Of a stretch of 60,277 nucleotides of DNA, positions 3,527 to 57,998 are shown piece by piece. The notes below the pieces were generated by a model. The model did no database searches, was not told the origin of the DNA, and was given only the letters and a program-made list of their open reading frames with translations. Origin of the DNA: a virus (lineage: Duplodnaviria > Caudoviricetes); IMG/VR virus record IMGVR_UViG_3300045954_000073, positions 1 through 60,277 of that record; one strand, given 5' to 3'. Every line of letters starts with the position of its first letter. Position 1 is the stretch's first letter. The position numbers were made by a program, and so were the translations under genes.

Positions 3527-3714
3527 GATTTGAGATTGGTAATCCGAGGTTCAAAAAGGGATTTTATCCCACCACCCCAATGCTCATAAATATCAGTTTG
3601 CACGTTGTTAACGTAATCACTGTGCTTGTTTATCCAGAAACAGGTTTTCCCAATTCTAAATCTTGTCCAGTGTCCGCCTTTTAGTCGGCGATACCATTCA
3701 AAATCGTTTAGCAT
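3523..3714 (-). CDS. Small hypothetical protein between HIP1-containing direct repeats
   Basis: 63-aa ATG ORF; GCGATCGCCTCT at 3510 and 3732. Confidence 0.5.
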   Translation of the reverse strand: MLNDFEWYRRLKGGHWTRFRIGKTCFWINKHSDYVNNVQTDIYEHWGGGIKSLFEPRITNLKS

Positions 3715-3749: not shown

Positions 3750-4094
3750 ATGCCGACGATATCATCAGATTATAAGATAAAAATCAATCCTACTGAGAAA
3801 GTTACTTATAGGCGAAATGTGGTCAGCTTTGGTGATGGCTACCCACAGCGTTCAAAGTCTGGCATCAACGCAATTCGCTCAAGCTGGAGCGTGACTTTCA
3901 CTGACTTAAACACAGCAGATAAAATTGCATTGCAATCAATCATTGATACCGCAGCAGGTGTCACAGGAATTGATTGGGTTCCCCCTGGTGAAGTCTAGGC
4001 TAAAAGGTGGCTGATCTCCGAACGTGTCACTAATTGGTTATCAAATGAATTATGGGAAATCTCGTGTACTATGGAATTACTGCATGAGACTTAA
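3750..4094 (+). pseudogene. Minor tail protein M-like pseudogene (paralog of 53010-53354)
   Basis: Same 345-nt length and similar sequence (MPTISSDYK...WEISCTMELLHE) with an in-frame TAG at 3996-3998. Confidence 0.88.
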
Positions 4095-41560: not shown

Positions 41561-41590
41561 TCATTGATCATTAGTGTTAAGAGGGTAATT

Positions 41591-41905
41591 ATGTTGCTGA
41601 AACCATTTACGAATGATACTGGCATTGGTGGATGTGGATATTGCTTTAAATGTCCAGGATGCAAGGATTGGCATTGTTTGTCCGTGCGTCCAAACACTTT
41701 ACCTAATGGTGCTGGATGGGTATTTAATGGTGACTTTGAAAGACCCACCTTTCAACCTAGTGTTTTGTCAACAGTGACTTTTGAAAGCGGGGAAAAGGAG
41801 GTCTGTCATTTGTTTGTTACTGATGGCAATTTAATATTTTTGGGTGATTGCACTCATGAGCTAGCAGGAAAAACACAGCCAATGCTGGATTTTGCTAACC
41901 CGTAA
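41591..41905 (+). CDS. DUF6527-like Zn-binding protein
   Basis: CPGCKDWH...WVFNGD.ERPTFQPSVL...CHLFVTDG...DCTH. Confidence 0.65.
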   Translation: MLLKPFTNDTGIGGCGYCFKCPGCKDWHCLSVRPNTLPNGAGWVFNGDFERPTFQPSVLSTVTFESGEKEVCHLFVTDGNLIFLGDCTHELAGKTQPMLDFANP

Positions 41906-42020
41906 AACCTTTTCGCAGCAAGAGATTGAGCAACGTGATACTCATTTTTGCTAAATTGCCAAACCACCAATTTGGGTAACCCAAGGAAGTGCTAAGGAAG
42001 TGCTTCAGTCACAACCACTC

Positions 42021-42046
42021 TCCTCATGATGAATTCATCATGAGGA
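42021..42046. repeat. Dispersed palindrome, perfect 26-bp copy upstream of the tape measure gene
   Basis: TCCTCATGATGAATTCATCATGAGGA. Confidence 0.95.
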
Positions 42047-42074
42047 AAGTAAATCTATTTAAGGGAAAAGTTTT

Positions 42075-45000
42075 ATGAAATTAGGGGAATTGCTGATCGA
42101 ATTTGGCGGCGACTTCTCGCAGCTTGATAAGGACATAGCAGAAGCCAAGCGCAAGGCCTCTGCTTCTGCGCGTGATATTGAGCAAATTTTCAACAAGAGA
42201 TTGAGAATTAATGTTGACGACTCCCCATTAACTAGGCTGAACAAACACCTTGATTTAAAAGTTCGTCACCTGCAGCAAGTTCAGCAAAACTTTAACAGCA
42301 ACCCCCTAACAATTAAAACTGATGAATCCAATCTGACTAAACTCAACAAAGCTTTAGGTAAAATCGAGTCTAGTTCTAATGTGCAGATATCCATTAAGAC
42401 TAATCATAAATCAAGTGACCTTAAACAAGATTTTAATCAAATAACTGATGATATTGGTGATGAATTCGAGAAAGTAGGCGATCGCTTAGTCAAAGCTATC
42501 AAGAAATCTGGCAAGGGTGGTATTTTTGATGCTGTATTTGCCATTCCTAAAAATATAGGAGTGGGATTCCAAGAAGGTATAGGGAAGGTTTTTGCTGATA
42601 AGGTTGCCTCTGGCTATGTGCGATCGGTTGAGAGTAAGTTTAAAGTTTCCCTGCGTGATTTAGGCAAGAAAAATGCTGATAGCGTAATAGATGCCGGAGG
42701 TAATACCACTAATTCAGTATTAAATAAGCTTGGGATGAAGAATGGCGCTGATGATGTAAAATCGGGCGTTCAAGCAATCAATAATCAATTCAGGCAACTA
42801 GTTCCCGAAGACGTAATTAACGCCAAATTGACCCGTGTAGAGAAAAGATTTGGTAAGTTTTTTGACGATTTGACTAAGCTCAAATCTGCAGATGTAAACC
42901 TGAATAATCTATTGGGATTAGCTCAAGAAATTAGTTCAATCCCTAAAATACCGATTGAATCGATGCGTAATCGGCGTAAATCGGCGTTGTCAGAAATTGC
43001 ACAAAATATTAGAAAAGAGGCGAGGACATCCCATTCCTCTATAGAAGTTGACAAGGATGCTGAATACCTAACCTTTGTCAGTGGTGGCTATGCAGGGAAG
43101 CAAGGCAAAGGCTCCCACGACGCAGCTAAAAAAATGGGGATGTTGCTTGGAGACAAACACCAAGTAATTCCGGTAGAAGATGTTTACACAGACGTTAGCA
43201 GTCCAATTGGTGAACAGGGCGCTTTGCGCTGGTCAGCCGAAGCATTAATGAAAACATTAAAAACGCCTTTGAAGCATGGCATCAATCCAGATGCTGTGAC
43301 TATGGCAACGCAGGCTTACCAGGCACACTTGCAAGATCCCACAAAGCCGATTAGAGCCGCTGGCTATTCAGCTGGCGGCTTTGTAGTTAATGATTTTGTG
43401 GAGATCATGAAAGAACTAGGGGTGAAAGATGTAAGTGCAGTTTCAATGGGTACGCCTCACTACGGCGTCTTGTCCAATAACAAACCCAATCAATACACCC
43501 CAATACTGGGGCAAGATGATGGGGTTATGAGGCTTGGTAAAATAGGAGCAGTTTTCACAGGTGGCTTTGCACCCAACATGCAAACAACCAGTGTCAGTGG
43601 GCATGAATTATCGAGTTACCTTGCCGATCCTCAATCTCAACATTACTTTCTGCAAGGATTAGAGGGAGCGAATTATGAAAAGCGTTCAGACGCTTTCAAT
43701 AATCCTGATACTTTTCGGATTTTAGATTATAAAAAAAATATTGAAAAAGCACTTGCTGGAATTGAGGAGATTTTAGTCAATCCAGTAGCAGATCAAGGTT
43801 TGCAGCAGCAAATACTGAGTGCGAATTTGGAAGGCATTAAGCAAACTAAATCTGATATTGATGAAGTTTTACAAAAATTAGATAAAGAAGTAATTGCCGA
43901 CTTTCAAGAATACTATGATGCACTGCTGGAAGCTGAAGCAGTTTTGCAAGATTTGATTGGTCAATCTCAACCTAAGCAGGTAAGTAAACCTCAAGGCACT
44001 AATGCGCCTTCTAGGAATGATGTTGAGCAATTAATGATGGGCGCTCAAAAAAGGGATTTAGAGCTAATAGCACCTGCATTTGGCATCAAAAATGCAGGCA
44101 AAATATCAAAGCAAGACTTAACACAATCGCTGCTAGATAAAGCACCATTAGAGATACTCAAGCAGCGATTGCCTTTTATGGTAGAGCCTAGTCAGCAGGT
44201 GCTGGACTCCATCAGTAAACGTGCAGCATTAGATCCAGATGCATTAAAGACGGTTACACAAGCAAGTTCTATAAATTTATTGAAACGATCTAGACAAGCT
44301 ACTAGAGGCTCAGAATTAATCACTTTGTCCAGTGATATTGAGCGTGAATATCAAATAGTTATTGGTTTGCTAGGCAAAAATTTATCTGAAGATTCCAAGA
44401 GAATCTTGCAAGGTGCAAAATTAACTTTGGGGAAAGCTAGGAAGCTAGCTATTCAAAATGCAGTTGCAGAAGTTAGTGAACAATATCAGCAACGTCAAGC
44501 AAGCCAGTCAAACCAATCTCAAGGCTTGGCTAGAACAAGCAACCCACTAAACCCATTATTGAAACTGCGGCAAGATGCATTGAAGCAAATGCGTCAGAAC
44601 TATAAGCAGGTATTTAGTGAATTAGCCAGCTTGACCAATTTTCAATTTGACGCCAACAAACTGCCTAAGTTGGTAGTTGATGAAACATCGCTACGCAATA
44701 TAGGTGCTGATGCTTTCTACGACATCGAAAAAAACCAAATATTAATTAACAAAGAAATTTATAAGGCGTTGCAGAAAACTCCTCAAGAATTAGCCAAAGC
44801 TGAAAATATACTTGAGATATTAGCCCATGAAGCACAGCACGTATTTCAATCGAATTACGGACAATTGTCGCTTGATGATTTAGTTGCTGGTAACTCTGCG
44901 GTTCCATTAGTAGATCCGTCTGCAGCGTCGCAAAAATCACGACAGGAGGCAAGGCAGAATGTCAAGCAAGTAAGGCGTGATACAGGAATATCATTTACCC

Positions 45001-48000
45001 GTGCCAAAGCTATTGAACGCTTAGAAATCGATGCTTATGAAGCTGAAAAGAAAGCTTCTCAGGTTGCAGTTAAATTGCAGGGAGCGGCGCCATCAAGGCA
45101 GGAAACCTCAGATGCGATTGCTTCAACTTTAGATAATATTTCTAAAATAATTCAAGAGTTTATACAAAAAATAGATTCTCTCGCACCGCAGATTAGAACC
45201 AACTTTATAGCCATTACTAAGGCTATGAATAATGGCTTGCAAGGATGGTTTGTATCTATCAAAGAAAAGCTCAATTTAATAATTAATCCGCTTCCTGAAA
45301 CTGTTGCAGATCCTTCTCAAGGATTGGCCAGGTCATCAGGCAAAACACGACGTATGCCAAATATGCGCCGTGCTCAACAATTCGCCGGAGACGTGGCTAG
45401 ATATGCTCAAGTGTTGGCATATAATGCCGAAACGCAAGCAGATGAAGCTACAGAAGCGTCAAGCACAAGATTAATTAATCGGATAGTACCCAGAAAAATC
45501 AGAAGGAAATTAGCCGCAGGCAGCGAAAAAGCAGAACAAGGCTTTAACTATTTAAGCGAAAATATACCAGGCTTTTTTAAAAACCCTGTGATAGATAAAA
45601 TTCTGACCTACACCTTGAAATTTAACATTAAGGGTTGGTCGGATGTTGTTGATGAATTTTATCGAGATTTAAATAAATTTTTCGCGTTTGTGGAGAAAAA
45701 GGCTGGTAATTCTCCATATTTAGGAGATTTTTTGAAACAGGCAACGGGCGGAGTCAAAAATTTATCTTTAACGCTTGTTGCTGGCACTGCTGTATTTTTC
45801 CGATTTTTCAGCATGATGAAATACATCGGATATTTACAGCAATTAAATGCTGTAGCTGTCATGGTTGCTACTACATTTGAAGGATTAAATAAACAATTCA
45901 TATTATCGGCAAGAACGCAAACACAGGGCATGGCGGCTTTAGAGCAGGCTATGTCGCTAGCTAAAGAACTGAGATTGAGTAGACAAGAACTTGTCACTGG
46001 AGGAGCGGGTATCCAAGCTGGTCTTAGACCACAAATCATTGATCAAATAGAAATCACTAAGTTTCTACAAGCTGCTACTCGCACAGCTAGAGTTTATGGT
46101 AGTACCCCCCAAAGTACGCAGCAGATCATGTCTGGTTTTGGGCAGATAACCCAAGACACTACCCTAAATCAACAAAGTTTTTCTCAACTACAAAATTCTG
46201 TGCCAGATGCTCTTTCTATTGCTGCTAGAGCGGCAAACACGACGGAAGCAGAATTCAGAAAGATGCTGGATACGGGCAGTGTCATAACCAATGAGTTTAT
46301 CCCACTGTTTACCAAGCAATTAAATGTCGAAGTCGAAACTGCTGGTAAATTAAGTTCGGCATCTGACACAATGGTTGCAGCTAATCAGCGATTGACAAAT
46401 GCTTTTGAGGAATTGCAGCTATCGTTCTCTGGGTTCCTGATTCCAATTAATAAGTTTGCCACCAATACTTATGCGGCAGCTGTAGAAAATGCTGTTGGAG
46501 TTACTTCAACTTTTAGCGCCGCATTGCAAGGCTTGGCGGCATGGGGCATTTATAAGTTTGCACGGGCTTTGGTTATGCTTGTTGGGCATATTCTAACGGT
46601 CGCTAAAGCTATTCCAGGATTAAGCATGGCGCTTCTTGCGGCGGGAAGAATTGCCCAACAAGTACTTTTTCAAACAATCCCTATTATTTTAAAGGTTACT
46701 AAAGAGCTTTTAATTTTCCAATTAATAGTTGACGGATTAACTATTCTCAAGGCTCGATTTTCTGATGCTGGGGGCAGTATTAGAGAATTTGCTGATTTAT
46801 CTATTAAAAATTTACGAGAACTAAAAAAGTCTCTTGATGATGTTAGCAATTCGACTCAAGCCATAGGTGATTCTCTCCCAAAAAAATCTTCCGAAATTAA
46901 AGGCAAGTCTTATTTGGAGGATACATTTTTTGGGGGAATAATTCCCAAAGAATGGGCAAGAAATATAGAAGATTTTGACAGAAATAGAAGAAATGTTGTT
47001 GATGATTATGCCCAAGAAAAGTATGGCAAGAATCGTCAAGATCAAGATTTATTTAGAATAAAATCTAGATCAGAAAAAGAAATGGAGGATAGGGGCAAGG
47101 CAACTGAGGAACTTGTCAAAACCTCCTCAGAACGAATTACCCTTGTTGGACAGCAGTTGCAACCAGGATCTGAATTATCTAGGGTCAAAGACCTCAACAA
47201 ACAAATTGATGCGATCCAAGGCAAAAGGCGAGCGATCTCTATTACCGATCCTAGTAACTCCAAACAGATAGAAAGTCTGCAGCGTGAGGAGTTGAAATTG
47301 CTGCAAGAAAGAGAGCGGCTTGTCAAGCCAGTAGAATTAATCGGATCTGGATTGGCGACGGACATAAAAGGCTTTAAAGAAGCCTTGATAGCTTACGACG
47401 AGATGGCTGCTAACGGCTTGATCACTCAAGATGAGTATGCAAAGCGAAATCAACAGCTTACTGATGCTTTAGAAAAAGCAGAAGATGCTCAAAAGCAGTT
47501 TAATAAAACAATGGAATATTCACTCACTCCGTTACAGGCCTTTGATAAGGTATGGAACAAAATTGCCAACAATTTATTAGATAGCAAGCTATCCATTGAG
47601 CAGGTGTCTAATTCACTAAAAACAGGTGTGGCAAATCAAGAAGCATCAGGGGATTTGTCTTCGGCCCAAGCCGGTTATATTAACTCCACAAGTCAGCAGA
47701 AATTATTGGGGCAACAGATTAAAATCACCGATTCTACAATTAAGCAGATGTATGGTGAACTGGAAGCTCAAGGTTCGGCAGAGATTTTTGCTAATTTAGG
47801 TATCAATAAAGAGACTGGCGTAAATCAGATTAAATCCCTCTCAGAAAAAGCAATAAACAGTCCTAGAGAAAAATCTGTACTTGACAAATTTGCAGAAATT
47901 AAAGGACTAGAACAAGAATTGTCTGGTTTGGAGCGGCAATTAGCAGAGGAAAGAGCCAACCTGCAACGCCAAATAGTGGATTTAACAAAACAGGTTGCCG

Positions 48001-51000
48001 ATTACTACCAGAACATCCAAAGACAAGCAGAACAGCAATCTATTGAATTTCAAAAACTCAAAAACCAAATTAATACTACAAATGCTCAAAACAAATTGAG
48101 AGCAGCTCTGACTAACGGCTACGACAACATTGTGACGCAATTTGTAGACGGCATTATTGATAGCATTGGGCAATTCAATCAAATAAGTGATCGCGCCCTA
48201 GACGCACAATCACAACTACTGCAAAACAGAAACCAGATACAAGATGCATCTCGACAGGCTATTGAATTGCGTCGCCAACTGCCAAATTTACCCACAATTC
48301 CTGTAGAGTTGGATTTTTCAAGTGTTAACGATAATACAAACATTCAGGAATTAAATGATGAGATAAGTGATGCTACTTCTAGCACCAAAGAATTAGAAGA
48401 TGCGATCGCATACTTAGAACGTTGTTTTAATCAAAATATTGATGCAGTAACTTATTTAAACAACAACATAAATCAGCTTGCACCTAATATCGAAACAGGT
48501 GCAGAATCTACCCAAAAATTATCCCAGGGATTTGATGATGTCAGCTCATCGGTTGATGGTATTTTGGGAAAAATCCAAGGTGTAGCCAGCACTACTGCTG
48601 AATGGCTATCTAATCTTGGTAATGCCCCAGCATTGATGCAGCAAATTGCTAATGGCATCGGCGGATTATTTGGACAAAGCCCCCAGCAAGTGCAAGATGC
48701 GACAAATCAAGTATTAAACAACCCCATCCAAGCGGCTCAAAATTTTTTAGGCGTGGACAAATTCAAGTTCCTTTCACCCATTGCTGGAACAACGGTAGAA
48801 GATTTATTGAGGTACAAACCCAGTCAAGGACAAGGGTTCTACGGTGTGAGGGATGGCGGCAAAAGGCAGCACAGCAAGATTGACTTTGATGGCAGGGCTA
48901 AAGCGGGTCAAAATGCAGAAATATTAGCTAGTCTGTCGGGGACGGCAACAGCTAAAGCCTGGACTAGCAACAGCGGTGGAATTTTCGTTGACACTGTGTT
49001 ACCTAGTGGACAAAAAATCACTTTAGAGTATGGACATTTATCACTAAAAAGTATTGCCCAAACCTTTGGCGGACAGCAAAATATAGGAACTAGAAACAGT
49101 CCAGGGAAGGTAATTCAAGTACAAGCAGGGCAAAAACTGGGGAACGTTATTCATGATAGCTTGTCCAGTGGAGCACACCTAGATTTTGGGGTGCGGATTA
49201 ATGGGAAATATGTTGAGCCTCAGAAATTTATGCAAGATTTCATTGCTGGCAAGTACGGTTCAGTGATGAGACAAAGCGCAGGGATGAGACAAAGCGCAGG
49301 GGCCATCGCCCCTAACAACAAATTGAATGCCAAATCAATTGCTGAAAATAGGGGATTACAATCTTTGCTGATTCAAGATTTGCAATCAGGGCAAATCTTG
49401 TCTGAATCAAACAGCAGCAAATCTCCGAAATCCCCAGCTTCAACAATTAAATTAATTGTTGGTGATTTGGTTGCTGATGCTGTTGAACAAGGTAAGCTTG
49501 AATTGCAAAGTCAGCTAACTCTAAAGCCTGGAGAAATTGCTGAATATTCCAATCTCAAGTCTGGACAAAAACTAACTGTTGCTGAGTTAGTTAATCTGAT
49601 GCTTGCAGAATCAGATAACACTGCTACAAATGCCTTGATAAACAGTTTAGGAGGCTTAAGAAAAACTACACAATTAGCAATTAACAAAGGCTATAAAAAT
49701 ACCAGAATTAATAACTTGTTAAGTATTCCTGGAGGTGGAACAGGCGTCAGCAATGTTTCTACTGCACAGGATACCACTATGGCAGCTAGAAATATTTTGC
49801 TGTCAAATAGTGAAGCGGGTAAAGTAGCAGCAAGTGCTTTAAGAAGCACTCGCAATTTCAAATATCAAGGTGAAGCAGGGGGGAAAATTGGTAACAATTC
49901 TCAAGTGCTGGGCAATGTAGGCGTTGTTGACATTCAAGGGAAAGAATATTTAGTCACAGCTTATGCTAACATCAACGGCAACAATGAAAACAATCGTTCA
50001 ATTATCAAAAACGCTACAAATGATGTTGTCAGTAGCCTGTCCACATCTGAGTTACCCGCATTAAGAAATCAAACTAGAGGCGGAGAGCGAGGGGTAATTA
50101 ATAACAAGACTATAAGCAGAGGCGCAAATCAGCTTTCCCCAGCAGAATACGCAAAATTAACACCTCTTGGTAGAGAACTTTATGAGCTACGCAATAATCC
50201 ATACATATTAGCAGTTTCGGACGCGGTGGCTAGGGCCGAAGGATCGGACTTTAGAGCGAATTCCAAAAACTTTGGCTATGGAATGATGATCGGTGGAGAA
50301 AATACCGCTGATTTTCGCGGACACCCATTTGTTGAAGGCGGAAGGCGTCCTCGGCACAATTCCACAGCATCTGGCCGCTATCAGATGATGAACTTTAATT
50401 ATTCCAAATCTGCGGTTCAACGTCAATTTGGCAAAGGCGCCAGAACAGATTTAGAAGCTATTATCAATTACAATGGGGCAGACAATCCTGGAACTTTTAG
50501 CCCCGGATTGCAGGATCTATATTTCATCCAATCTCTAAAATCTAGAGGAGTTTTGGATCAAATTCTCAGTGGCAAGATTGATGCTAGTGTGTGGAATAAA
50601 CTTGCCCCGCACTACGCCTCTATTCAGTCTGGAAGCAGAAGAAGTGCTTATGGCGGACAAGGAACGCCAGAAGGGCAGCACAGCAGTTTAAATAAATTCG
50701 TCGGACAAAGGCTACAAGTTCGCCAAAATCCCGCTATGCAAGCAGCTTTGAATGGGCGAAGTATTTCCCCTGCTCAAATGAATGCAACTGTCAACCAAGG
50801 CTTGGCGTTGGCGCAATCTGGCTACGAACAGCAACAGGGACTGATTCAAGAGCAAGCAGCAGCTGACAGCGAGAGACAAAAGCAGGAATTTTTGAGAAAT
50901 CAACAGCGAAATTTGCGGCAGTTTCAGCGTGCTGGTAGAGATTTGGAGGATCAGCGGCGGGGCGAAAGACGCCAAACCGAAGATTTAGCTACAAAGGCGA

Positions 51001-52955
51001 TCGCTAACCCTAGTCCTCAGCAGCAATTTGCCGTGAAAGTACGTGACATTGACAGAGAATATGACGATGCAATTCGAGATAGAGAAAGGCGATTAGCAGA
51101 GATTAAGCAACGCATTACCAGTGCAGAACAATCTTTAGCTACCGGACAAATTACGGGTGAAAATGCGGACGCCCTAAATAAACAGTTGACCAGCGACAAA
51201 ACAGCCTTGGTCGAGGCGCAAACTGAATTGGAGAAATTGACTCAGTTAAGAAAAGCAGCCAAGGAAGAAGCTGAAAAACTTTTCAACAGAGAAGAGGGAT
51301 TGCGACGCCAAAACGCTTCAATGGCGCAACGCAAAGCCGAAATCGCCAATTTACAGGAGCAAATCAACCTGCTCAATCAATTGGGGAAAATCAACTTTTC
51401 CGATCCTAGAGTGCGCCAATTGCCTGAATTGCAAAAACTTTTGGAATTGAATCAGGCTGATTTAAATCTTCAAGAAGAACTACAACGTATCGAACAGGAG
51501 CAATATTCTCACACCATCACTCCAGAGGAGGCACAACGACGGATTGCGATCGCCACCCAGCAAAATGAGAAGTTGAAAGAGACAATAACTCTCAAGCAAA
51601 CTGAATTACAACTAGAAGAGGCAAGGCGACAAATAGAAGGACAAAATGCACTCAATCAGGCACGAATTACAAATCTGAGAAGCCGGGCCACATCCGCCAA
51701 ATATAATCCTGATGCTAACCCCATCTTGTTAGAATCTGAGGCGTCCAAACTGGAGTTAGAACAGAAATATGCAGATACTGTTCGAGATTTGGATGAAGCA
51801 TTGCGAACTGGGCGCTATGGACAAGCAACCCTAGAAATTGTCCCTAAGCTTAAACAGCAAGCTTTGATTACTGCCTTGCGTGATGCGAAAAATGCCGCTA
51901 GTCAAACGAAATTGGAATTAGAAACTAGAGAGTTTGAGAAAAACCAGCGATTTTCTCAGTCAAGACAAGATTTGCTATCAGCGAGGGCAGGCTATCTCAA
52001 GACCTATGGACTTGATGCCCAAGCTGGCAAACTGGAAAAAGAAACTGCTGTTCTTCAACAAAGAAGCAGCTACCGATCATCTATTAGGGAATTAGAGCAA
52101 TTTGCGATCGCCAACAATTTGAGTGCCACTGAAGTGCAAAAATTGAGGAGTGAACTTGACCAAATTAACCAAGTAAAACTAGACACCATTAATGCACAAT
52201 TCAGTGTGTGGACAGATGTAATTAAGGGTACTCAATCTCAGTTTCAGGGATTTTTCAAAGATTTGATCAGTGGCAGTGATGATTTAGGTAGCGCGTTTGG
52301 TAAATTGTTTGGTGGCATTGGCGATATGCTAGCTAATCTTGCGGCTCAGTGGCTGACCAATGAACTGTTCGGCTCCATCATGGGTAAAGGCGGGGGTGGC
52401 GTTGGGCAGCAATCTAGCGGTGGATTTTTAGAAGGGATATTTGGTGGCTCTTCTGGCGCTACTCCCGGATTCGGCGGTGGTTTTGGTGGTAGCCTACTGG
52501 GGGGAGTGTTCAGTCTTTTTGGTTTTGCTAGCGGTGGTATGGTTGGCGAAATCCCTAATTATGCTACTGGTGGAATGCCAGAAAACTTTGCCGACAAGGT
52601 GCAAAAAGCTTACAGTCGCGAAAAAATTATGACTGGTAGGATGCCTCATTTAATTGTGGTTTCCGAAGGAGAGCGCATTCTCAATCATAAAGAGACAGCT
52701 ATTTGGAACCAATTACAACAGTCAGGTAAACTAAATTTTGCTGATGGTGGCGTGGTGGGCACTAGCGATAATATTAGTAATAATGTTGTTGACAGTACCT
52801 CTCGTACAACTATCAACGTACCTATCACTATTCAATCTCAGGGTAATAGCGGGAAGAAAGAATTTACTCCAGAACAAGCCAAGGTGTTAGAACAGGTAGT
52901 TACTGCTGTGATTGTTAACCAGCAACGCCCTGGCGGAGTTTTGTACGGATTTTAG
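42075..52955 (+). CDS. Tail tape measure protein with multiple hydrolase domains
   Basis: LGELLIEFGGD N-terminus, tape-measure core ~45850-46450, FASGG/FADGG and NQQRPGGVL C-terminus; GYSAGG, HEAQH, M23, SxxK/SDN and lysozyme motifs. Confidence 0.92.
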   Translation: MKLGELLIEFGGDFSQLDKDIAEAKRKASASARDIEQIFNKRLRINVDDSPLTRLNKHLDLKVRHLQQVQQNFNSNPLTIKTDESNLTKLNKALGKIESSSNVQISIKTNHKSSDLKQDFNQITDDIGDEFEKVGDRLVKAIKKSGKGGIFDAVFAIPKNIGVGFQEGIGKVFADKVASGYVRSVESKFKVSLRDLGKKNADSVIDAGGNTTNSVLNKLGMKNGADDVKSGVQAINNQFRQLVPEDVINAKLTRVEKRFGKFFDDLTKLKSADVNLNNLLGLAQEISSIPKIPIESMRNRRKSALSEIAQNIRKEARTSHSSIEVDKDAEYLTFVSGGYAGKQGKGSHDAAKKMGMLLGDKHQVIPVEDVYTDVSSPIGEQGALRWSAEALMKTLKTPLKHGINPDAVTMATQAYQAHLQDPTKPIRAAGYSAGGFVVNDFVEIMKELGVKDVSAVSMGTPHYGVLSNNKPNQYTPILGQDDGVMRLGKIGAVFTGGFAPNMQTTSVSGHELSSYLADPQSQHYFLQGLEGANYEKRSDAFNNPDTFRILDYKKNIEKALAGIEEILVNPVADQGLQQQILSANLEGIKQTKSDIDEVLQKLDKEVIADFQEYYDALLEAEAVLQDLIGQSQPKQVSKPQGTNAPSRNDVEQLMMGAQKRDLELIAPAFGIKNAGKISKQDLTQSLLDKAPLEILKQRLPFMVEPSQQVLDSISKRAALDPDALKTVTQASSINLLKRSRQATRGSELITLSSDIEREYQIVIGLLGKNLSEDSKRILQGAKLTLGKARKLAIQNAVAEVSEQYQQRQASQSNQSQGLARTSNPLNPLLKLRQDALKQMRQNYKQVFSELASLTNFQFDANKLPKLVVDETSLRNIGADAFYDIEKNQILINKEIYKALQKTPQELAKAENILEILAHEAQHVFQSNYGQLSLDDLVAGNSAVPLVDPSAASQKSRQEARQNVKQVRRDTGISFTRAKAIERLEIDAYEAEKKASQVAVKLQGAAPSRQETSDAIASTLDNISKIIQEFIQKIDSLAPQIRTNFIAITKAMNNGLQGWFVSIKEKLNLIINPLPETVADPSQGLARSSGKTRRMPNMRRAQQFAGDVARYAQVLAYNAETQADEATEASSTRLINRIVPRKIRRKLAAGSEKAEQGFNYLSENIPGFFKNPVIDKILTYTLKFNIKGWSDVVDEFYRDLNKFFAFVEKKAGNSPYLGDFLKQATGGVKNLSLTLVAGTAVFFRFFSMMKYIGYLQQLNAVAVMVATTFEGLNKQFILSARTQTQGMAALEQAMSLAKELRLSRQELVTGGAGIQAGLRPQIIDQIEITKFLQAATRTARVYGSTPQSTQQIMSGFGQITQDTTLNQQSFSQLQNSVPDALSIAARAANTTEAEFRKMLDTGSVITNEFIPLFTKQLNVEVETAGKLSSASDTMVAANQRLTNAFEELQLSFSGFLIPINKFATNTYAAAVENAVGVTSTFSAALQGLAAWGIYKFARALVMLVGHILTVAKAIPGLSMALLAAGRIAQQVLFQTIPIILKVTKELLIFQLIVDGLTILKARFSDAGGSIREFADLSIKNLRELKKSLDDVSNSTQAIGDSLPKKSSEIKGKSYLEDTFFGGIIPKEWARNIEDFDRNRRNVVDDYAQEKYGKNRQDQDLFRIKSRSEKEMEDRGKATEELVKTSSERITLVGQQLQPGSELSRVKDLNKQIDAIQGKRRAISITDPSNSKQIESLQREELKLLQERERLVKPVELIGSGLATDIKGFKEALIAYDEMAANGLITQDEYAKRNQQLTDALEKAEDAQKQFNKTMEYSLTPLQAFDKVWNKIANNLLDSKLSIEQVSNSLKTGVANQEASGDLSSAQAGYINSTSQQKLLGQQIKITDSTIKQMYGELEAQGSAEIFANLGINKETGVNQIKSLSEKAINSPREKSVLDKFAEIKGLEQELSGLERQLAEERANLQRQIVDLTKQVADYYQNIQRQAEQQSIEFQKLKNQINTTNAQNKLRAALTNGYDNIVTQFVDGIIDSIGQFNQISDRALDAQSQLLQNRNQIQDASRQAIELRRQLPNLPTIPVELDFSSVNDNTNIQELNDEISDATSSTKELEDAIAYLERCFNQNIDAVTYLNNNINQLAPNIETGAESTQKLSQGFDDVSSSVDGILGKIQGVASTTAEWLSNLGNAPALMQQIANGIGGLFGQSPQQVQDATNQVLNNPIQAAQNFLGVDKFKFLSPIAGTTVEDLLRYKPSQGQGFYGVRDGGKRQHSKIDFDGRAKAGQNAEILASLSGTATAKAWTSNSGGIFVDTVLPSGQKITLEYGHLSLKSIAQTFGGQQNIGTRNSPGKVIQVQAGQKLGNVIHDSLSSGAHLDFGVRINGKYVEPQKFMQDFIAGKYGSVMRQSAGMRQSAGAIAPNNKLNAKSIAENRGLQSLLIQDLQSGQILSESNSSKSPKSPASTIKLIVGDLVADAVEQGKLELQSQLTLKPGEIAEYSNLKSGQKLTVAELVNLMLAESDNTATNALINSLGGLRKTTQLAINKGYKNTRINNLLSIPGGGTGVSNVSTAQDTTMAARNILLSNSEAGKVAASALRSTRNFKYQGEAGGKIGNNSQVLGNVGVVDIQGKEYLVTAYANINGNNENNRSIIKNATNDVVSSLSTSELPALRNQTRGGERGVINNKTISRGANQLSPAEYAKLTPLGRELYELRNNPYILAVSDAVARAEGSDFRANSKNFGYGMMIGGENTADFRGHPFVEGGRRPRHNSTASGRYQMMNFNYSKSAVQRQFGKGARTDLEAIINYNGADNPGTFSPGLQDLYFIQSLKSRGVLDQILSGKIDASVWNKLAPHYASIQSGSRRSAYGGQGTPEGQHSSLNKFVGQRLQVRQNPAMQAALNGRSISPAQMNATVNQGLALAQSGYEQQQGLIQEQAAADSERQKQEFLRNQQRNLRQFQRAGRDLEDQRRGERRQTEDLATKAIANPSPQQQFAVKVRDIDREYDDAIRDRERRLAEIKQRITSAEQSLATGQITGENADALNKQLTSDKTALVEAQTELEKLTQLRKAAKEEAEKLFNREEGLRRQNASMAQRKAEIANLQEQINLLNQLGKINFSDPRVRQLPELQKLLELNQADLNLQEELQRIEQEQYSHTITPEEAQRRIAIATQQNEKLKETITLKQTELQLEEARRQIEGQNALNQARITNLRSRATSAKYNPDANPILLESEASKLELEQKYADTVRDLDEALRTGRYGQATLEIVPKLKQQALITALRDAKNAASQTKLELETREFEKNQRFSQSRQDLLSARAGYLKTYGLDAQAGKLEKETAVLQQRSSYRSSIRELEQFAIANNLSATEVQKLRSELDQINQVKLDTINAQFSVWTDVIKGTQSQFQGFFKDLISGSDDLGSAFGKLFGGIGDMLANLAAQWLTNELFGSIMGKGGGGVGQQSSGGFLEGIFGGSSGATPGFGGGFGGSLLGGVFSLFGFASGGMVGEIPNYATGGMPENFADKVQKAYSREKIMTGRMPHLIVVSEGERILNHKETAIWNQLQQSGKLNFADGGVVGTSDNISNNVVDSTSRTTINVPITIQSQGNSGKKEFTPEQAKVLEQVVTAVIVNQQRPGGVLYGF

Positions 52956-52962
52956 AAGACAT

Positions 52963-52984
52963 CTCATGATGAATTCATCATCAG
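52963..52984. repeat. Dispersed palindrome copy after the tape measure gene
   Basis: CTCATGATGAATTCATCATCAG. Confidence 0.9.
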
Positions 52985-53009
52985 CAAAACAGCAATAGTC
53001 CGAGAGACA

Positions 53010-53354
53010 CTAAAATTCATGCAACAATTCCATAGTGCAAGAAATTTCCCATAGATCGTCTGACAGCAAATTAGTTACAGGATCTGCAACCAACCATCTT
53101 TTGCTCTGGATTTCCCCTGGCGCAATCCAATCAATCCCTACGACTCCTGCCGCATCATCAATAATTGCTTGCAACGCTTTTTTTTTGATTTCTGTTAAAT
53201 CAGTAAAAGTCACGCTCCAACTTTGCTTCACAGCATTAATGCCGGTCTTGGATCTTTGCTGATACCCATCGCCAAAACTTACCACATTACGCCTGTAATT
53301 AGTTCTCAGAGAGGGATTGATTTTGACTTTATAATCTGATGATATGGTTGGCAT
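53010..53354 (-). CDS. Minor tail protein M-like, inverted relative to the operon
   Basis: VVSFGDGYQQR...GIN...WSVTF. Confidence 0.9.
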   Translation of the reverse strand: MPTISSDYKVKINPSLRTNYRRNVVSFGDGYQQRSKTGINAVKQSWSVTFTDLTEIKKKALQAIIDDAAGVVGIDWIAPGEIQSKRWLVADPVTNLLSDDLWEISCTMELLHEF

Positions 53355-53375
53355 ATTTACTAGAGAAATATTTTT

Positions 53376-54053
53376 ATGACCGCGCCTAATTCTGAGCTAT
53401 TAACTCTAACGCCAGATGCAATAGTCAGTCTTTATATTTTAGATTTGACGCCATTGGGTACAAATCAATTGTATAAATTTTGCAACTGGAAACAAAGCGA
53501 TGGCGCAGATATTATTTTTCAGGGGCAAACCTATATTTCCTTGCCTTTTGAAGCGAGTGGATTTGAACTAAGCACGCGAGGACAGCCAGCACAGCCTAGC
53601 ATTACACTGAGTAATATATTCGGGGTTTTTACTGCTTTCTCCTTGCAATTCAACGATTTGGTGGGTGCTACCTTAATCAGAAAACGTACGCTAGCCAAAT
53701 ATCTAGATAACTCCCCGACAGCAGATCCAAACATGGAATTTAGTGATGATCGCTATCGAGTGTGGCGCAAATCGCAAGAAAGTGAATTGAGAATCAGCTA
53801 TGAATTAAGGCGATTTTCCGATTTAGGATTTCGCAGCAAAATCCCAGCAAGAATTATTATTAAAAATTCTTGCTTCTGGCAATACCGTAGCTCTGAATGT
53901 GGTTACGCTGGTGGGGTGATCGCGGATGAGAATGACAACCTTACAAATGACCTAAGTAAGGATGCTTGTGGGAAAAGATTATCCAGTTGTAAACTTAGAT
54001 TTGGGCAATATGGAGAGTTGCCTTTTGGTGGCTATCCTGGGGTAGATAGTTAA
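53376..54053 (+). CDS. Minor tail protein L-like
   Basis: RKRTLAKYLD, CFWQYRSSECGY, DACGKRLSSCKLRF...PFGGYPG. Confidence 0.93.
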   Translation: MTAPNSELLTLTPDAIVSLYILDLTPLGTNQLYKFCNWKQSDGADIIFQGQTYISLPFEASGFELSTRGQPAQPSITLSNIFGVFTAFSLQFNDLVGATLIRKRTLAKYLDNSPTADPNMEFSDDRYRVWRKSQESELRISYELRRFSDLGFRSKIPARIIIKNSCFWQYRSSECGYAGGVIADENDNLTNDLSKDACGKRLSSCKLRFGQYGELPFGGYPGVDS

Positions 54054-54063
54054 ATTTGTGATA

Positions 54064-54648
54064 ATGATGAAAATAGTCAAATTATTAGGTGAGTTAGGTA
54101 GAAAATTCGGAAGAGAATGGCGACTCAATATTCATACTCCCGCTGAAGCCATTAAGGCGATCGCTGTTAATTGCCCTGGATTTATTGAGTATCTATACGC
54201 CAGCGAGGAGAGAGGATTGTATTGGCGAGTAGTGATTGACGAGCCACAGGGCATTGACCAATCACAATTCGGTTTCCCCATTACCCAAAAACTGGTGATT
54301 GCGCCTATTATTACTGGTTCTGGTGGTTTTGGAAGAATTCTTTTAGGCGGTGCCTTGATCGCAGCCTCGGTATTTATGCCTGCATCAGTTTCAATAATTG
54401 GGATAGGCATCACCTCTACCACAGTTGGCTTATTAGGGGCAGCTTTACTGTTTCAGGGAATAAGCTCGTTGCTTGCTCCCCAAAACAAAACACCTAAAAA
54501 TAATAAAAATGAGTCTTATTTATTTGATAGATCAGCAGGATCTGGAAGACAGGGTTCGCCTGTTCCAATCGGATACGGCGAAAGGCTAATTACTGACCCT
54601 GTAATTATTAGTCAAGGTATCACCACAGAAGAAATCCCCGCAAATTAA
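54064..54648 (+). CDS. Tail assembly protein I-like
   Basis: KLLGELGRKFG...TPAEAIKA...QGSPVPIGYGE. Confidence 0.92.
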   Translation: MMKIVKLLGELGRKFGREWRLNIHTPAEAIKAIAVNCPGFIEYLYASEERGLYWRVVIDEPQGIDQSQFGFPITQKLVIAPIITGSGGFGRILLGGALIAASVFMPASVSIIGIGITSTTVGLLGAALLFQGISSLLAPQNKTPKNNKNESYLFDRSAGSGRQGSPVPIGYGERLITDPVIISQGITTEEIPAN

Positions 54649-54650
54649 TA

Positions 54651-57600
54651 ATGACTAATAAACAAAGAATAATAGTACGTGGATCTGGGGGCGGCGGGGG
54701 CGGTTCTAGTGGCAACACCCCAAGGGAAGCACCCAATAACTTAAGATCGCGGGCAGATGCGGTCATTTTGCTTTTGTTGGGTGAAGGTGAAATAGAGGGT
54801 TTTTCCACAGCAGATCCCTTGCAAAGTATTTATTTAGATGCCACTCCCATAAAAAATAGCGATGGCAGCCTAAATTTCCAGAATGTAGCCATTGATTATC
54901 GCACAGGTACTCAATGGCAGGGTTATATCTCCGGCATTTCTAGTGCCGTTCGTAACGAGATAGCTGTAGGCACTCAAATCAAACAAGTTAATGGGCCCAC
55001 CACTCGTACCATCGTCAATCCAGATGCTAATGCCGTGATTGTGCGAGTCATGATTCCTACGCTTTTAGATCAAGACGACAAAGGCAATATCAACGAGTCG
55101 TCGGTCAGTTTCCGCATTGATTTATCGACTCAGGGGGGGAATTTTGAGCCTATCTACAATGAAACTATTAGCGGCAAAACTTCTGGGAACTACGAGCGAC
55201 AATATAGAATTAATTTAAGTACAAGTGGCCCTTGGGATATTCGCATCACTAGGCTTACGCCAGATAGTGATCGCACCACACTCCAAAATTCTCTATTTTG
55301 GCAGTCGCTAACTGAGGTGATTGATTTGAAATTGCGCTATCCCAATAGCGCATTACTTGGCGTTAGGGTAAGCGCCGAGCAATTTAATAGTATCCCGAAA
55401 GTCTCAGTCAAACTGAAACAGATAAGAATTCTTGTGCCTCACAATTACAATCCACTGAGCAGACAATATTCAGGGATTTTTGACGGCACTTTGATTAGGC
55501 AATACAGCAATAATCCAGCATGGATTTTTTACGATTTAATCACTAATTCTCGCTATGGTTGCGGTAAATATATTGATGAATCGCTAGTGGACAAATTTGA
55601 TTTATACGCTATTGGGCAATATTGCGATGAACTTGTTCCCGATGGAAAGGGCGGGATAGAACCGCGTTTTACTTGCAATGTTTACATCCAAAATCAAGAT
55701 GACGCTTTTAGGATTTTAGAATCCCTTTCTGCTTGTTTTCGAGGCATGATATATGAGCGCAATGCAACTATCACAGCTGTGCAAGACAAGCCATCAAATC
55801 CGAACAGAATATACACTCGCGCTAATGTAGTTTGCGAGTACGATGATGATGGACGATTAACGGCTCCACCATTTGTATACAGTGGCAGTAGCTTAGATAC
55901 TCGCGCAACTGTGGCCCTAGTTAGTTGGAGCGATCCAGCTAATAATTACGAGACTGCTGTAGAGACAGTAGAGGACAAAGAAGGACTAGCAAAATTTGGT
56001 TACAATTCAATAGAGTTAGCGGCTTTTGGATGCACTTCTAGAGGACAAGCTTACAGGCTAGGCAAATGGACTTTGCTAAGTCAACGCTATCTAACTCAAA
56101 CAATTACTTTTAAAGTGGGTGCTGAAGGGTTGCTCGTCAATCCCGGAGAAGTTTTTAAAGTGATGGATTCTCTAAAAAGCGTTTCTCGTCGCGGGGGCAG
56201 AATTAAAGCTGCGGGCATCAATTTTATAGAACTAGATGACGCAGTAATAATTGAGCCTGGAAAAAGTTACAATCTTTCAACAGTTAAAAGTAACGGGATT
56301 ATTGAAACTAAAATTGTTTTAAATTCTAGCGGAATACATACAATTTTGTATGTTAATAATTGGTCGGAGACACCACGACATATTTGGATTTTAGAATCCA
56401 GTGATTTACAGGCTCAACTCTTCAGGTGTACCGCAGTTTCAGAAATTGGCGAACATTTATATGAAATTGTGGGAGTTGAGTATAATCCTAGCATTTATGA
56501 TTTAGTAGAGAAATCAGGATTCTTGCTTGAAGAACCAGATGTTAGCGGTTTCCCAGATTTACTGATACCGCCTAGTTCGCCATCTGCACTAAAAATTCAA
56601 GAATCCTTGTATCAAACCATTGGAAGCGGAGGGGTGAAAACCAAAGCCAGTATTACCTGGCAGGCATCAACTTCAATACTTATCAAAGAATATCAACTAG
56701 AATATCGCAGAGATGGACAATCTCAATACACAGTGATTGGCGGACTTCAAGATTTATCAACTACACTATACGATGTAGCACCAGGAATATATTTTTTTAG
56801 AGTAAAAGCTATTAATAATTATGGGACATCTAGCAGTTACACGCAACAAGTCCAAGAAATTTATGGACTATCTTACCCACCGTCTGATGTCCAAAATTTT
56901 TATGTAAATATTACAGATTCATATGCTAATTTCACATGGAATGAATCTCCTGATTTAGATGTTCGAGTAGGAGGTAAATTTAGAGTTAAATATACTAGCA
57001 AAAAACAAAACACTTCTTGGGCTGACGGCATAGAAATTGCCGCAGTTGCTGGGTACTCAAATTACCTCAGATTTCCAGCACTTGAAGGAACATTTCTAAT
57101 TAAAGCTGTGGACTCCGAAGGGAACCAAAGTAGGAATGTGGCGCAAGTCGTACTAGACAACATTTCACGAACTATAAACTACAACGCAGTAGAAACATCT
57201 ATTCAGCATCCTAATTTTAATGGGATAAAAACAAATACTATTGTTGTAGACAATCAACTCAAGCTAGCCTCTATTGATTATTTTGATTTTCAGACCGGAC
57301 TATTTGACGATATGCCGGGATTATTTGATGATGTTGCCGGATACTTTGATTCAACCGAAGGCGATTTTGATTTTCAGCCTGGAATGTTTGACGATCTGGG
57401 TATTTTATACGCAATATACCCATCAGGATACTATGATTTTGATGCGCCAATAGACTTAGGAGATATTTTTGACTCTCGTTGCACTGCCAATTTCTCTGGA
57501 AGGGCAATTGATGAATCAAGATTTTTTGATAGAGTAGGAGGGCTTTTTGACAATTATTTGGGTTTTTTTGATGGAGAAGATATTGATAATGCTTCCGCCA

Positions 57601-57998
57601 TTCTTCAAATATCAGTTTCACAAGATGGAATAAATTATAATGAATATCAAAATTTTGTCACAGGAAATTACAAAGGCAGAGCTTTTAAATTCAGGGTATT
57701 TTTGCAAAGCAGTGAAGTTAAAAATAACTTTGCAATTAGCGAATTATCTGTTACTGTCGATATGCCAGATACAATTTTGTCCGGCAATACACAAACATCC
57801 AATTTAATTGATACGATAGTAAGCTTTAGTAAAAAATTCAGAGAAGTACCAGAAATAGGACTGACACTTCAAGATGGACTATCCGGTGATTATATTAAAC
57901 TAGAGTCTAAAACCACATCAGGTTTTGTGATTAATGCTAGAAACAATTTAAATAATAGAATTATAAGAACAATATCTTGGATAGCTAAAGGTTATTAA
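54651..57998 (+). CDS. Tail tip / host specificity protein J-like with FN3 domains
   Basis: LGEGEIEG, YPNSAL, SNNPAW, EPRFTCN, AFGCTSRGQA. Confidence 0.93.
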   Translation: MTNKQRIIVRGSGGGGGGSSGNTPREAPNNLRSRADAVILLLLGEGEIEGFSTADPLQSIYLDATPIKNSDGSLNFQNVAIDYRTGTQWQGYISGISSAVRNEIAVGTQIKQVNGPTTRTIVNPDANAVIVRVMIPTLLDQDDKGNINESSVSFRIDLSTQGGNFEPIYNETISGKTSGNYERQYRINLSTSGPWDIRITRLTPDSDRTTLQNSLFWQSLTEVIDLKLRYPNSALLGVRVSAEQFNSIPKVSVKLKQIRILVPHNYNPLSRQYSGIFDGTLIRQYSNNPAWIFYDLITNSRYGCGKYIDESLVDKFDLYAIGQYCDELVPDGKGGIEPRFTCNVYIQNQDDAFRILESLSACFRGMIYERNATITAVQDKPSNPNRIYTRANVVCEYDDDGRLTAPPFVYSGSSLDTRATVALVSWSDPANNYETAVETVEDKEGLAKFGYNSIELAAFGCTSRGQAYRLGKWTLLSQRYLTQTITFKVGAEGLLVNPGEVFKVMDSLKSVSRRGGRIKAAGINFIELDDAVIIEPGKSYNLSTVKSNGIIETKIVLNSSGIHTILYVNNWSETPRHIWILESSDLQAQLFRCTAVSEIGEHLYEIVGVEYNPSIYDLVEKSGFLLEEPDVSGFPDLLIPPSSPSALKIQESLYQTIGSGGVKTKASITWQASTSILIKEYQLEYRRDGQSQYTVIGGLQDLSTTLYDVAPGIYFFRVKAINNYGTSSSYTQQVQEIYGLSYPPSDVQNFYVNITDSYANFTWNESPDLDVRVGGKFRVKYTSKKQNTSWADGIEIAAVAGYSNYLRFPALEGTFLIKAVDSEGNQSRNVAQVVLDNISRTINYNAVETSIQHPNFNGIKTNTIVVDNQLKLASIDYFDFQTGLFDDMPGLFDDVAGYFDSTEGDFDFQPGMFDDLGILYAIYPSGYYDFDAPIDLGDIFDSRCTANFSGRAIDESRFFDRVGGLFDNYLGFFDGEDIDNASAILQISVSQDGINYNEYQNFVTGNYKGRAFKFRVFLQSSEVKNNFAISELSVTVDMPDTILSGNTQTSNLIDTIVSFSKKFREVPEIGLTLQDGLSGDYIKLESKTTSGFVINARNNLNNRIIRTISWIAKGY

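Follow-up and report, generated by a model that had tools for sequence, protein, structure and literature searches.

A giant tape measure protein of a putative cyanobacterial prophage with five predicted enzyme domains arranged around its core

Results

A 3626-residue tape measure gene in a provirus record

We analysed a stretch of viral DNA of 60,277 bases (IMG/VR virus record IMGVR_UViG_3300045954_000073), called the window below, which is a provirus record with a completeness of 65% (CheckV). On its + strand, an open reading frame (ORF) at 42075..52955 stays open for 3626 codons and encodes a protein of 3626 residues plus the stop. A frame of this length is not kept open by chance and the ORF is genuine. 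Residues 1262-1447 (45858..46415) match PF20155 TMP_3 (E 3.6e-13, 50.1 bits vs a cut-off of 41) and residues 1338-1406 match TIGR02675 (29.5 bits vs a cut-off of 21.35). Because both matches are above the curated cut-offs, and because the gene lies between the gene for the major tail protein and the tail genes M, L, I and J, we identify the product as a tape measure protein (TMP). The same flanking genes put the ORF where a lambda-like tail module has its TMP gene. The last ~470 residues (3158-3625) also match PHROG 339, annotated as tail length tape measure protein.

A preliminary description of this DNA, made from its letters alone, had read the ORF as a 3626-residue TMP with five enzyme-like domains. 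Our analysis agrees with both the TMP identity and the order of the domains, each of which is backed by profile or PDB matches or by a confident model together with conservation. The motifs on which that description was built lie at residue 430 (GYSAGG, nucleotide 43362), residue 918 (HEAQH, nucleotide 44826), residue 2266 (HSKID, nucleotide 48870), residue 2367 (AHLDF), residue 2456 (STIK, nucleotide 49440), residue 2513 (SDN), residue 2604 (KIG), residues 2721-2723 (AEG), from residue 2763 (STASGRYQ) and at residue 2808 (FSPGLQD). The parts of the protein are as follows.

42075..42944, + strand: N-terminal TMP element (residues 1-290), common with TMPs of Nostocales cyanosiphophages and found in 63 of 156 collected proteins
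42972..43754, + strand: cutinase/LipA-like alpha/beta-hydrolase module (residues 300-560), predicted from a model and conservation
44562..45104, + strand: small zincin-like module (residues 830-1010), predicted from a model and conservation
45858..46415, + strand: tape measure core (residues 1262-1447), from PF20155 and TIGR02675
46548..46739, + strand: hydrophobic helices (residues 1492-1555) directly behind the core, from Kyte-Doolittle 19-residue windows of at least 1.5
48822..49274, + strand: predicted M23/LytM-type metallopeptidase domain (residues 2250-2400), from Pfam and motif alignment
49347..50114, + strand: predicted serine DD-peptidase domain of the penicillin-binding protein A (PBP-A) type (residues 2425-2680), from PF13354 and the PDB entry of Tll2115
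50172..50714, + strand: predicted lambda-R-type lysozyme domain (residues 2700-2880), from phmmer matches to 3d3d/1am7
50772..52334, + strand: long helical charged stretch (residues 2900-3420), with a Q+E+K+R+L+A fraction of 0.50-0.67
52335..52952, + strand: glycine-rich stretch and conserved TMP C-terminus (residues 3421-3626), from PHROG 339; this C-terminal module occurs in 23 of 156 collected proteins

From the N- to the C-terminus the order is thus the TMP N-terminal element, hydrolase, zincin-like module, core with hydrophobic helices, a helical stretch, M23, PBP-A, lysozyme, a second helical stretch and the glycine-rich C-terminus. The second helical stretch is probably a coiled coil, and glycine makes up 20% of residues 3401-3600. 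By the same Kyte-Doolittle measure there is another hydrophobic segment at residues 1230-1248, and both this segment and the helices behind the core may be membrane-inserting parts. At 0.15 nm per residue the predicted tail length is 544 nm for all 3626 residues and 356 nm for residues 1251-3626. The whole protein contains a single cysteine.

Hydrolase and zincin-like modules before the core

The hydrolase module has a proposed triad of S432 (within GYSAGG), D482 and H510, that is, a GxSxG elbow followed along the chain by the acid and then the histidine. Among 163 aligned copies of the module, G430 is kept in 160, S432 in 161, G434 in 163 and H510 in 151 (with 10 gaps), and position 482 is Asp in 143 and Glu in 20. 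An AlphaFold (AF2) model built from a 27-row alignment reached a predicted local distance difference test score (pLDDT) of 94.3. Foldseek placed fungal cutinases at the top of the solved structures (E 8e-6). In VIA-align, the model gave Z 12.9 to cutinase 4oyy, with a root-mean-square deviation (rmsd) of 3.4 over 170 residues, 12.8 to the lipase Lip_vut1 and 12.0-12.1 to Bacillus subtilis LipA entries; 794 of the 1000 chains aligned had Z of at least 8. Modelling of the segment, one of the checks suggested at the outset, thus yields the expected lipase-like fold. Among predicted viral structures the best matches were a 'tape measure domain protein' and unnamed phage proteins (E 1e-11 to 1e-13), with Lysin B lower.

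By sequence, the hydrolase module had no significant Pfam or PDB match, the PDB search giving chance-level results. Cutinase PF01083 was matched at E 0.14 with the whole protein and at E 0.0026 with the module alone (18.2 bits), and the gathering score of 25.9 was not reached. Any single alpha/beta family matches at most 10 of 27 scanned members of the module (best E 3e-6), and ESM Atlas gave leads only (DUF687, DUF900, Abhydrolase_8, Thioesterase). Relatives are numerous, with 266 at E <= 1e-3 and 135 at E <= 1e-10 (HMMER, 1.84 billion cluster representatives). Of the 154 collected proteins with the module, 95 have at least 2000 residues (median 2743, maximum 6835) and 52 carry two to four copies. 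The module also occurs in 4 of 301 sampled cyanobacterial genomes, each time in an open frame of 1647-2790 residues. Two of the 27 scanned proteins also match Phage_Mu_F, a head protein family, and one matches NUDIX, so the module occurs in combination with further virion or enzyme parts as well. The model and the conservation suggest that the module is a real, lid-less serine hydrolase of an unnamed family and that it is probably active.

The zincin-like module carries H918-E919-x-x-H922, Q925 and E984-x-D986. A lone HExxH is expected by chance in about one of ten proteins of this size, by our own estimate. In 53 copies of the module from 36 collected proteins, H918 is kept in 51, E919 in 52, H922 in 51, Q925 in 50, E984 in 50 and D986 in 38; the two downstream acids, E984 and D986, are candidates for a putative third metal ligand. 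The AF2 model of the module (pLDDT 94.1) has the HExxH on a helix at positions 81-96 of the model. Zinc metallopeptidases, judged by title, make up 39 of the best 50 rows of a wide VIA search (among them ERAP1, aminopeptidase N, selecase, jannalysin, Wss1, BlaR1 and the VgrG2b effector), with selecase at Z 5.3 (rmsd 3.1 over 90 residues) and the VgrG2b metallopeptidase effector domain at Z 5.7. Sequence comparison of the module with solved structures gave chance-level matches, with no significant Pfam match. DUF6782, a 'putative metallopeptidase' family, matches 7 of 15 copies (best E 1.3e-4), the window copy not being among them. We also considered DUF4157/eCIS_core (PF13699) but did not file the module there, as support was faint (3 of 15 copies, best E 0.097; window copy E 0.76). 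ESM Atlas gave leads only (DUF3920, SprT-like), a word-based search found no stand-alone relatives of 96-308 residues and a scan of viral contigs with the module found no relative. By its model and conservation, the module is zincin-like and probably of the gluzincin type.

Three wall-cutting domains behind the core

The predicted M23 domain has the motifs H2266-x-x-x-D2270, a middle H2321 and a last motif H2368-L-D2370. The homologous module of a relative (P0002) matches M23 at E 6e-22 (78 bits) and aligns with the window module; compared with the PDB, the window module itself gave matches only at E 0.5-0.7. In 23 aligned rows the last motif is H-L-D in 9 and H-L-H in 8. By these alignments H-L-D is a recurrent variant and not random decay.

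Residues 2431-2629 match Beta-lactamase2 PF13354 (E 1.9e-25, 89.9 bits vs a cut-off of 22) with the motifs S2456-T-I-K2459, S2513-D-N2515 and K2604-I-G. The top match among solved structures is Tll2115 (2j7v, E 2.6e-12), a PBP-A from Thermosynechococcus, with TEM-type enzymes behind it at about 1e-9. We collected 24 distinct TMP-embedded PBP-A copies, in which SxxK is present in 24, SDN in 22 and KIG in 22. A Leu of the window domain aligns with a residue that is Glu solely in the engineered entry 2j9o, which we take to be the Glu166 position of beta-lactamases, and none of the 24 copies has a general-base Glu in the aligned loop. The preliminary description had left the choice between a beta-lactamase and a PBP fold; the PBP side of that choice stands, and a class A beta-lactamase was rejected, since no copy has the loop Glu and the bla_class_A profile gave 55.2 bits vs a cut-off of 200. 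The sequence comparisons predict an acylating PBP-A-type DD-peptidase with an unusual yet conserved K-I-G. A recent capture of PBP-A from the host was considered and rejected, the homologues in the five cyanobacterial genomes searched being just 27-32% identical.

The third domain matches the lambda lysozyme structures 3d3d/1am7 at E 6e-9 (phmmer), with its AEG aligned on SEG and E2722 as the Glu at the catalytic position. A tblastn search with it brought up 124 phage records with lambdoid endolysins; in the 30 matches listed, identity was 29-31%. The catalytic Glu is retained in 7 of 7 lysozyme relatives. PF00959 was not matched by the window protein at E <= 1. The domain is predicted to be a lambda-R-type lytic transglycosylase. 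Taken over the module alignments, catalytic residues are largely retained among homologs in all five modules, a point on which the first reading of the sequence had been open to refutation.

Relatives, module exchange and polarity

At 39-52% identity, full-length relatives of 3265, 3359 and 3380 residues repeat the module order from end to end, with differing cassettes. P0002 is without the hydrolase and has M23, PBP-A, VanY and lysozyme; P0008 has the lysozyme without PBP-A, and its M23 copy surfaced just in an iterative search; P0009 has M23 and PBP-A only in its wall-cutting cassette. There are also array-type relatives: one of 6835 residues (P0010) has 4 hydrolase and 6 zincin copies before the TMP core, and one of 5815 residues (P0004) has 3 hydrolase copies. 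Scanning genome contigs with the entire TMP brought up no close relative.

The TMP-embedded PBP-A module occurs at 36 IMG/VR loci at 37-72% identity, in all cases in long ORFs. Eight of these 36 ORFs are complete within the locus (2127-4521 residues) and the others are cut by the locus end. The closest relative (72% identity; L084, 7325-13705) is a complete ORF of just 2127 residues, and the 16.6-kb locus has no other + strand ORF of at least 300 residues; this may be a shortened or split form.

A recognisable TMP core is present in 121 of 214 collected proteins and ORFs. In the 120 that remain when the window protein is excluded, the hydrolase (140/140) and the zincin (49/49) always lie N-terminal of the core (189 copies). 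By contrast, M23 (17/17), PBP-A (28/28) and lysozyme (25/25) always lie C-terminal of it (70 copies). All five modules together were found in the window protein alone among the 214.

With tblastn, the first 1250 residues matched three records in the phage collection: CrV-01T, Cr-LKS4 and CL131. Residues 1-187 are 34% identical to the annotated TMP of Cylindrospermopsis virus CrV-01T (gp064, 4416 residues by its coordinates) and residues 1-169 match the Cr-LKS4 TMP. The Aphanizomenon phage CL131 (L082, record 41716-54576) has three adjacent genes where the window has one: gp047 (330 residues) is TMP-like, gp048 (1811 residues) carries the hydrolase module and is annotated as hypothetical, and gp049 (2131 residues) is the TMP. 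The CL131 tail is 361 nm long (PMC6293099, Table 1). At 0.15 nm per residue this fits gp049 alone (2131 residues, ~320 nm), and the three genes together do not fit. Phage Mic1 has a 400-nm tail and a longest ORF of 2572 residues (PMC7156551). Giant TMPs in cyanosiphophages are therefore already on record, though as names only.

The prophage and its host

Besides the TMP gene, the window encodes small and large terminase subunits, a Mu-type portal, a prohead protease, a capsid protein and a major tail protein. The genes that bear on the tail module and the host, together with one further long ORF, are as follows.

1-1608, + strand: flavin amine-oxidase gene, cut by the window start; 72-73% identical to genes of Nostoc and other cyanobacteria
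2723-3526, - strand: K-like tail protein with Prok-JAB and NlpC/P60, ~50 kb from the tail module
3750-3998, + strand: second, shorter M copy of 82 residues (PF05939, E 5e-13), adjoining the K-like gene
20842-23886, + strand: ORF of 1014 residues with weak DNA-methyltransferase PHROG matches at its C-terminus and PHROG 3193 (function not assigned) at residues 159-306
at 39233, upstream of the TMP gene: major tail protein (PHROG profile)
41564-41905, + strand: DUF6527/PHROG 3362 protein of unassigned function immediately preceding the TMP gene, at the position expected for a tail assembly chaperone
53010..53354, - strand: minor tail protein M between the TMP gene and L (PF05939, E 5e-15)
53376..57998, + strand: tail tip genes L (at 53376), I-like (at 54058) and J (at 54651)

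The tail tip genes were recognised by Phage_tail_L (E 4e-52), Lambda_tail_I (E 1.7e-4), GpJ FNIII-A and Phage-tail_3, and by PHROG 18 and PHROG 31. The M gene is intact and points towards the TMP gene and away from L. No K-like gene turned up in the stretch from L to the I-like gene, and no tail assembly chaperone family was recognised at 41564-41905. The 1014-residue ORF had no match in a Pfam scan. No tRNA genes were found in the window, and there was no free endolysin among 36 other ORF translations, a subset of the window ORFs, scanned with PHROG and Pfam.

Judged by its similarity to cyanobacterial genes, the amine-oxidase gene is probably host DNA flanking the prophage. Because of this gene we take the host to be a cyanobacterium, as had been supposed at the start. 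The sole isolated phages with partial matches to the TMP (tblastn, phage collection) infect Cylindrospermopsis and Aphanizomenon, and a Nostocales-type host is likely.

Discussion

A ruler that may also carry enzymes

From sequence, models and analogy we think it probable that this protein is the TMP of a lambda-like siphoviral prophage in a cyanobacterium, probably of the Nostocales type, and that it serves as both a ruler and a polarised carrier of enzymes. The carrier reading is drawn from the arrangement of the modules, because the hydrolase and zincin always lie N-terminal and the wall-cutters always C-terminal of the core. The preliminary description had seen a single envelope-drilling toolkit. 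This holds for the C-terminal trio of M23, PBP-A and lysozyme, for which peptidoglycan is the expected substrate, but not for the hydrolase and zincin, which are head-proximal of the core in 189 of 189 copies. These N-terminal modules occupy the position of the RNA polymerase that the TMP of phage P23-45 delivers to its host (PMC10770324).

The C-terminus of TMPs sits at the tail tip in lambda and T5, so the C-terminal helical stretch and the three wall-cutters would be the first to exit the tail. The cyanobacterial wall is thick and highly cross-linked. In it, the lysozyme domain would cut glycan strands, and the M23 endopeptidase and the PBP-A DD-peptidase would cut peptide cross-links. The hydrophobic helices at residues 1492-1555 would then insert in the cytoplasmic membrane and form a conduit for DNA. 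The N-terminal hydrolase and zincin would exit last, next to the DNA, and act at or inside the cytoplasmic membrane. The target of the hydrolase would most likely be an ester or lipid at this membrane, and the zincin may cleave either the TMP itself, which would release modules, or a host protein. The current view is that TMPs are driven out of the tube and into the envelope (PMC10770324, Discussion).

Several observations weigh against this reading. The M23 match of the window (residues 2276-2382) is at E 3.4e-4 and 21.2 bits, below the Pfam cut-off of 28.7, and its last motif is H-L-D where the canonical one is HxH. The third PBP motif, K-I-G, likewise departs from the canonical K-T/S-G. The weak Pfam matches of the hydrolase are spread across thioesterase, cutinase and lipase families, all below cut-off. 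For the zincin, the model is confident and most of its best 50 matches are zinc peptidases by title, but the fold match is weak, with a best Z of only 6.6 (ERAP1 catalytic domain; wide VIA search). Foldseek with this model gave no match at E <= 0.001, with selecase, ArdC and IrrE as weak rows, and the window's own module has no Pfam peptidase family match at E < 0.1. The sample behind the polarity counts is redundant and was gathered via hydrolase and PBP-A matches, so that the copies do not count as independent events. Folded globular domains totalling about 1000 residues do not fit a tail-tube lumen of ~4 nm, and storage in an unfolded form or elsewhere would be needed. Lastly, the prophage looks irregular: M is inverted, K lies 50 kb off beside a truncated M and completeness is 65%. 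The gene may be out of use now and the prophage may be defective.

Other explanations

All five domains could instead act on the envelope from outside or in the periplasm, the hydrolase on an outer-membrane lipid, a lipoprotein or an ester-linked wall polymer and the zincin on envelope proteins. The lid-less, cutinase-like hydrolase is of the LysB fold type, with LysB among its viral fold matches; one hydrolase relative weakly matches the Tle3 phospholipase family of the type VI secretion system; and the VgrG2b effector domain (Z 5.7) is among the fold neighbours of the zincin. Even so, we regard this as unlikely, given that the hydrolase and zincin stand head-proximal of the core and apart from the wall-cutters in 189 of 189 copies, and that the one N-terminal TMP enzyme studied so far has phage DNA inside the host, and not the envelope, as its target (PMC10770324). 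Alternatively, the N-terminal modules may serve the virion, with the zincin processing the TMP in tail assembly and the hydrolase being an assembly or maturation factor or being removed before the virion is complete. In CL131, the hydrolase-bearing gp048 (1811 residues) is a gene separate from the TMP gp049 (2131 residues), and the 361-nm tail (PMC6293099) fits gp049 alone (~320 nm) and not three genes; both points favour this reading. Up to 4 hydrolase and 6 zincin copies per protein are hard to square with a housekeeping role in assembly, the catalytic triad is strongly conserved and 2 of 27 hydrolase-module members also match Phage_Mu_F. This family is known as a carrier of ejected toxins. 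As precedents for processing, lambda gpH is trimmed to gpH* in tail assembly and small zincins often self-process. We consider a service role of this kind quite improbable.

We give little credence to the idea that some of the domains, or even all of them, are relics that have lost catalysis and remain only as spacers or binding modules of a long ruler. Degenerate LytM domains that solely bind or activate are well known (EnvC, NlpD), the last M23 motif is HxD, the third PBP motif is KIG and M23 falls below the Pfam cut-off. But the unusual motifs are conserved in their own right (KIG in 22 of 24 copies, HLD in 9 of 23 rows), unlike random decay, and nucleophiles and metal ligands are retained at 92-100% in the hydrolase, zincin, PBP-A and lysozyme alignments, retention that we see in every module. 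It is scarcely credible that the long ORF is an artefact, either an assembly chimera or adjacent genes fused by sequencing errors. The record is a provirus from a metagenome-type collection and the corresponding parts are three genes in CL131; set against this are the independent proteins of 3265, 3359 and 3380 residues with the same module order (39-52% identity), 8 IMG/VR loci with complete ORFs of 2127-4521 residues holding these modules and the CrV-01T annotated TMP of 4416 residues.

What the carrier reading would mean

TMPs are usually viewed as rulers with an occasional single wall-cutting motif. Precedents exist for one or two wall-cutters in a TMP and, in a single case, for a fused polymerase. 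In the literature searched (titles and abstract openings of those top matches that were displayed), we found no TMP with beta-lactamase, PBP, cutinase, lipase, esterase or HExxH domains, and none that joins three wall-cutters, including a serine DD-peptidase, with cutinase-like and zincin modules. The PBP-like and lipase-like parts, singled out as unusual in the preliminary description, are thus unusual by this survey as well. The window chain unites three predicted wall-cutting chemistries with two putative enzymes without an obvious wall substrate, and the modules recur with fixed polarity in many metagenomic giant TMPs.

Should the enzymes be active, the protein would reveal the way in which phages get through the wall of filamentous cyanobacteria, which is thick and highly cross-linked. 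The list of virion-borne enzymes would grow by a serine DD-peptidase and a lipase-like hydrolase, and what is so far one proven case of TMP delivery, the P23-45 RNA polymerase, would be widened into a general principle. In isolated form, the domains are candidates for lytic agents against cyanobacteria that form blooms. The PBP-A domain is not to be read as an antibiotic-resistance gene.

We also raise, tentatively and with more doubt than confidence, a wider proposal for the giant TMPs of cyanobacterial and other long-tailed siphoviruses. These may be polarised modular delivery polyproteins in which exchangeable C-terminal wall-cutters open the envelope, an N-terminal effector array (hydrolases in 1-4 copies, zincins in up to 6) follows ahead of the DNA and the zincin cuts the chain for release. 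On this view the tail ruler would be a device for injecting proteins in general, of which the P23-45 RNA polymerase would be one special case.

Comparison with known systems

Tail length is determined by the length of the TMP, and some TMPs also have wall-hydrolase motifs. T5 pb2 has a C-terminal metallopeptidase motif. In the mycobacteriophage TM4, wall-hydrolase motif 3 of the TMP gp17 aids infection of stationary cells, and removal of 114 residues including the motif shortened the tail by ~20 nm (PMC1796659). Enterococcal phage TMPs have lytic transglycosylase domains (PMC10194240). The window protein resembles these TMPs in having predicted muralytic domains within the ruler that are expected to act at DNA entry, with M23 and transglycosylase being the usual kinds. 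It differs in having three such domains in a row where they have one or two, and in that one of the three is a predicted serine DD-peptidase of the PBP-A type.

The serine domain is like Tll2115 PBP-A (2j7v/2j8y; E 2.6e-12 over 212 query residues) in its SxxK and SDN motifs and in that neither has the general base of beta-lactamases. Tll2115 has KTG where the window has KIG, and the window domain is embedded in a virion protein. The lysozyme domain shares the AEG with the catalytic Glu, GRYQ and FSP..QD motifs with the lambda endolysin R (1am7/3d3d), but identity is ~30% and R is a free lysis enzyme, in contrast to a domain inside a virion protein.

The hydrolase module shares with cutinases, LipA and LysB the predicted fold (Z 12-12.9 for cutinase and LipA), the GxSxG elbow and the order Ser-Asp-His. 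Unlike them, it falls below the Pfam Cutinase cut-off, is 13-16% identical and lies inside TMPs, often in 2-4 copies. Mycobacteriophage LysB is a free lysis enzyme of mycolata phages and shows that this fold is used on envelopes.

The closest cyanophage counterparts, CrV-01T and CL131, share the N-terminal TMP element (27.6-34.2% identity), and the hydrolase module of CL131 gp048 is 30.5% identical. In these phages the annotation extends to TMP or hypothetical for the CL131 genes, and the CrV-01T match lies in an annotated TMP. They differ from the window in that no M23, PBP-A or lysozyme match was found in any cyanophage record at E <= 1e-5 (tblastn) and in that the CL131 parts are separate genes.

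Outside phages, the TMP-related effectors (Tme) of actinobacterial contractile injection systems (PMC11126660, PMC13277306) are, as described there, tape-measure-like proteins that are ejected as effectors. These are contractile injection systems and not phages.

The nearest parallel to the carrier reading is gp96 of the Thermus phage P23-45, a TMP of 5002 residues whose N-terminal portion is a virion RNA polymerase that transcribes pre-early genes and that the authors propose to work at the TMP pore (Chaban et al. 2024, PMC10770324). The enzyme function is demonstrated there, and in the window the functions are predicted from sequence and models. The enzymes also differ, an RNA polymerase as opposed to a hydrolase and a zincin, with no sequence relation seen, and the window protein adds a C-terminal triple wall-cutting cassette. 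Both are giant siphovirus TMPs, and the non-muralytic, host-acting enzyme of P23-45 lies on the same side as the predicted hydrolase and zincin of the window.

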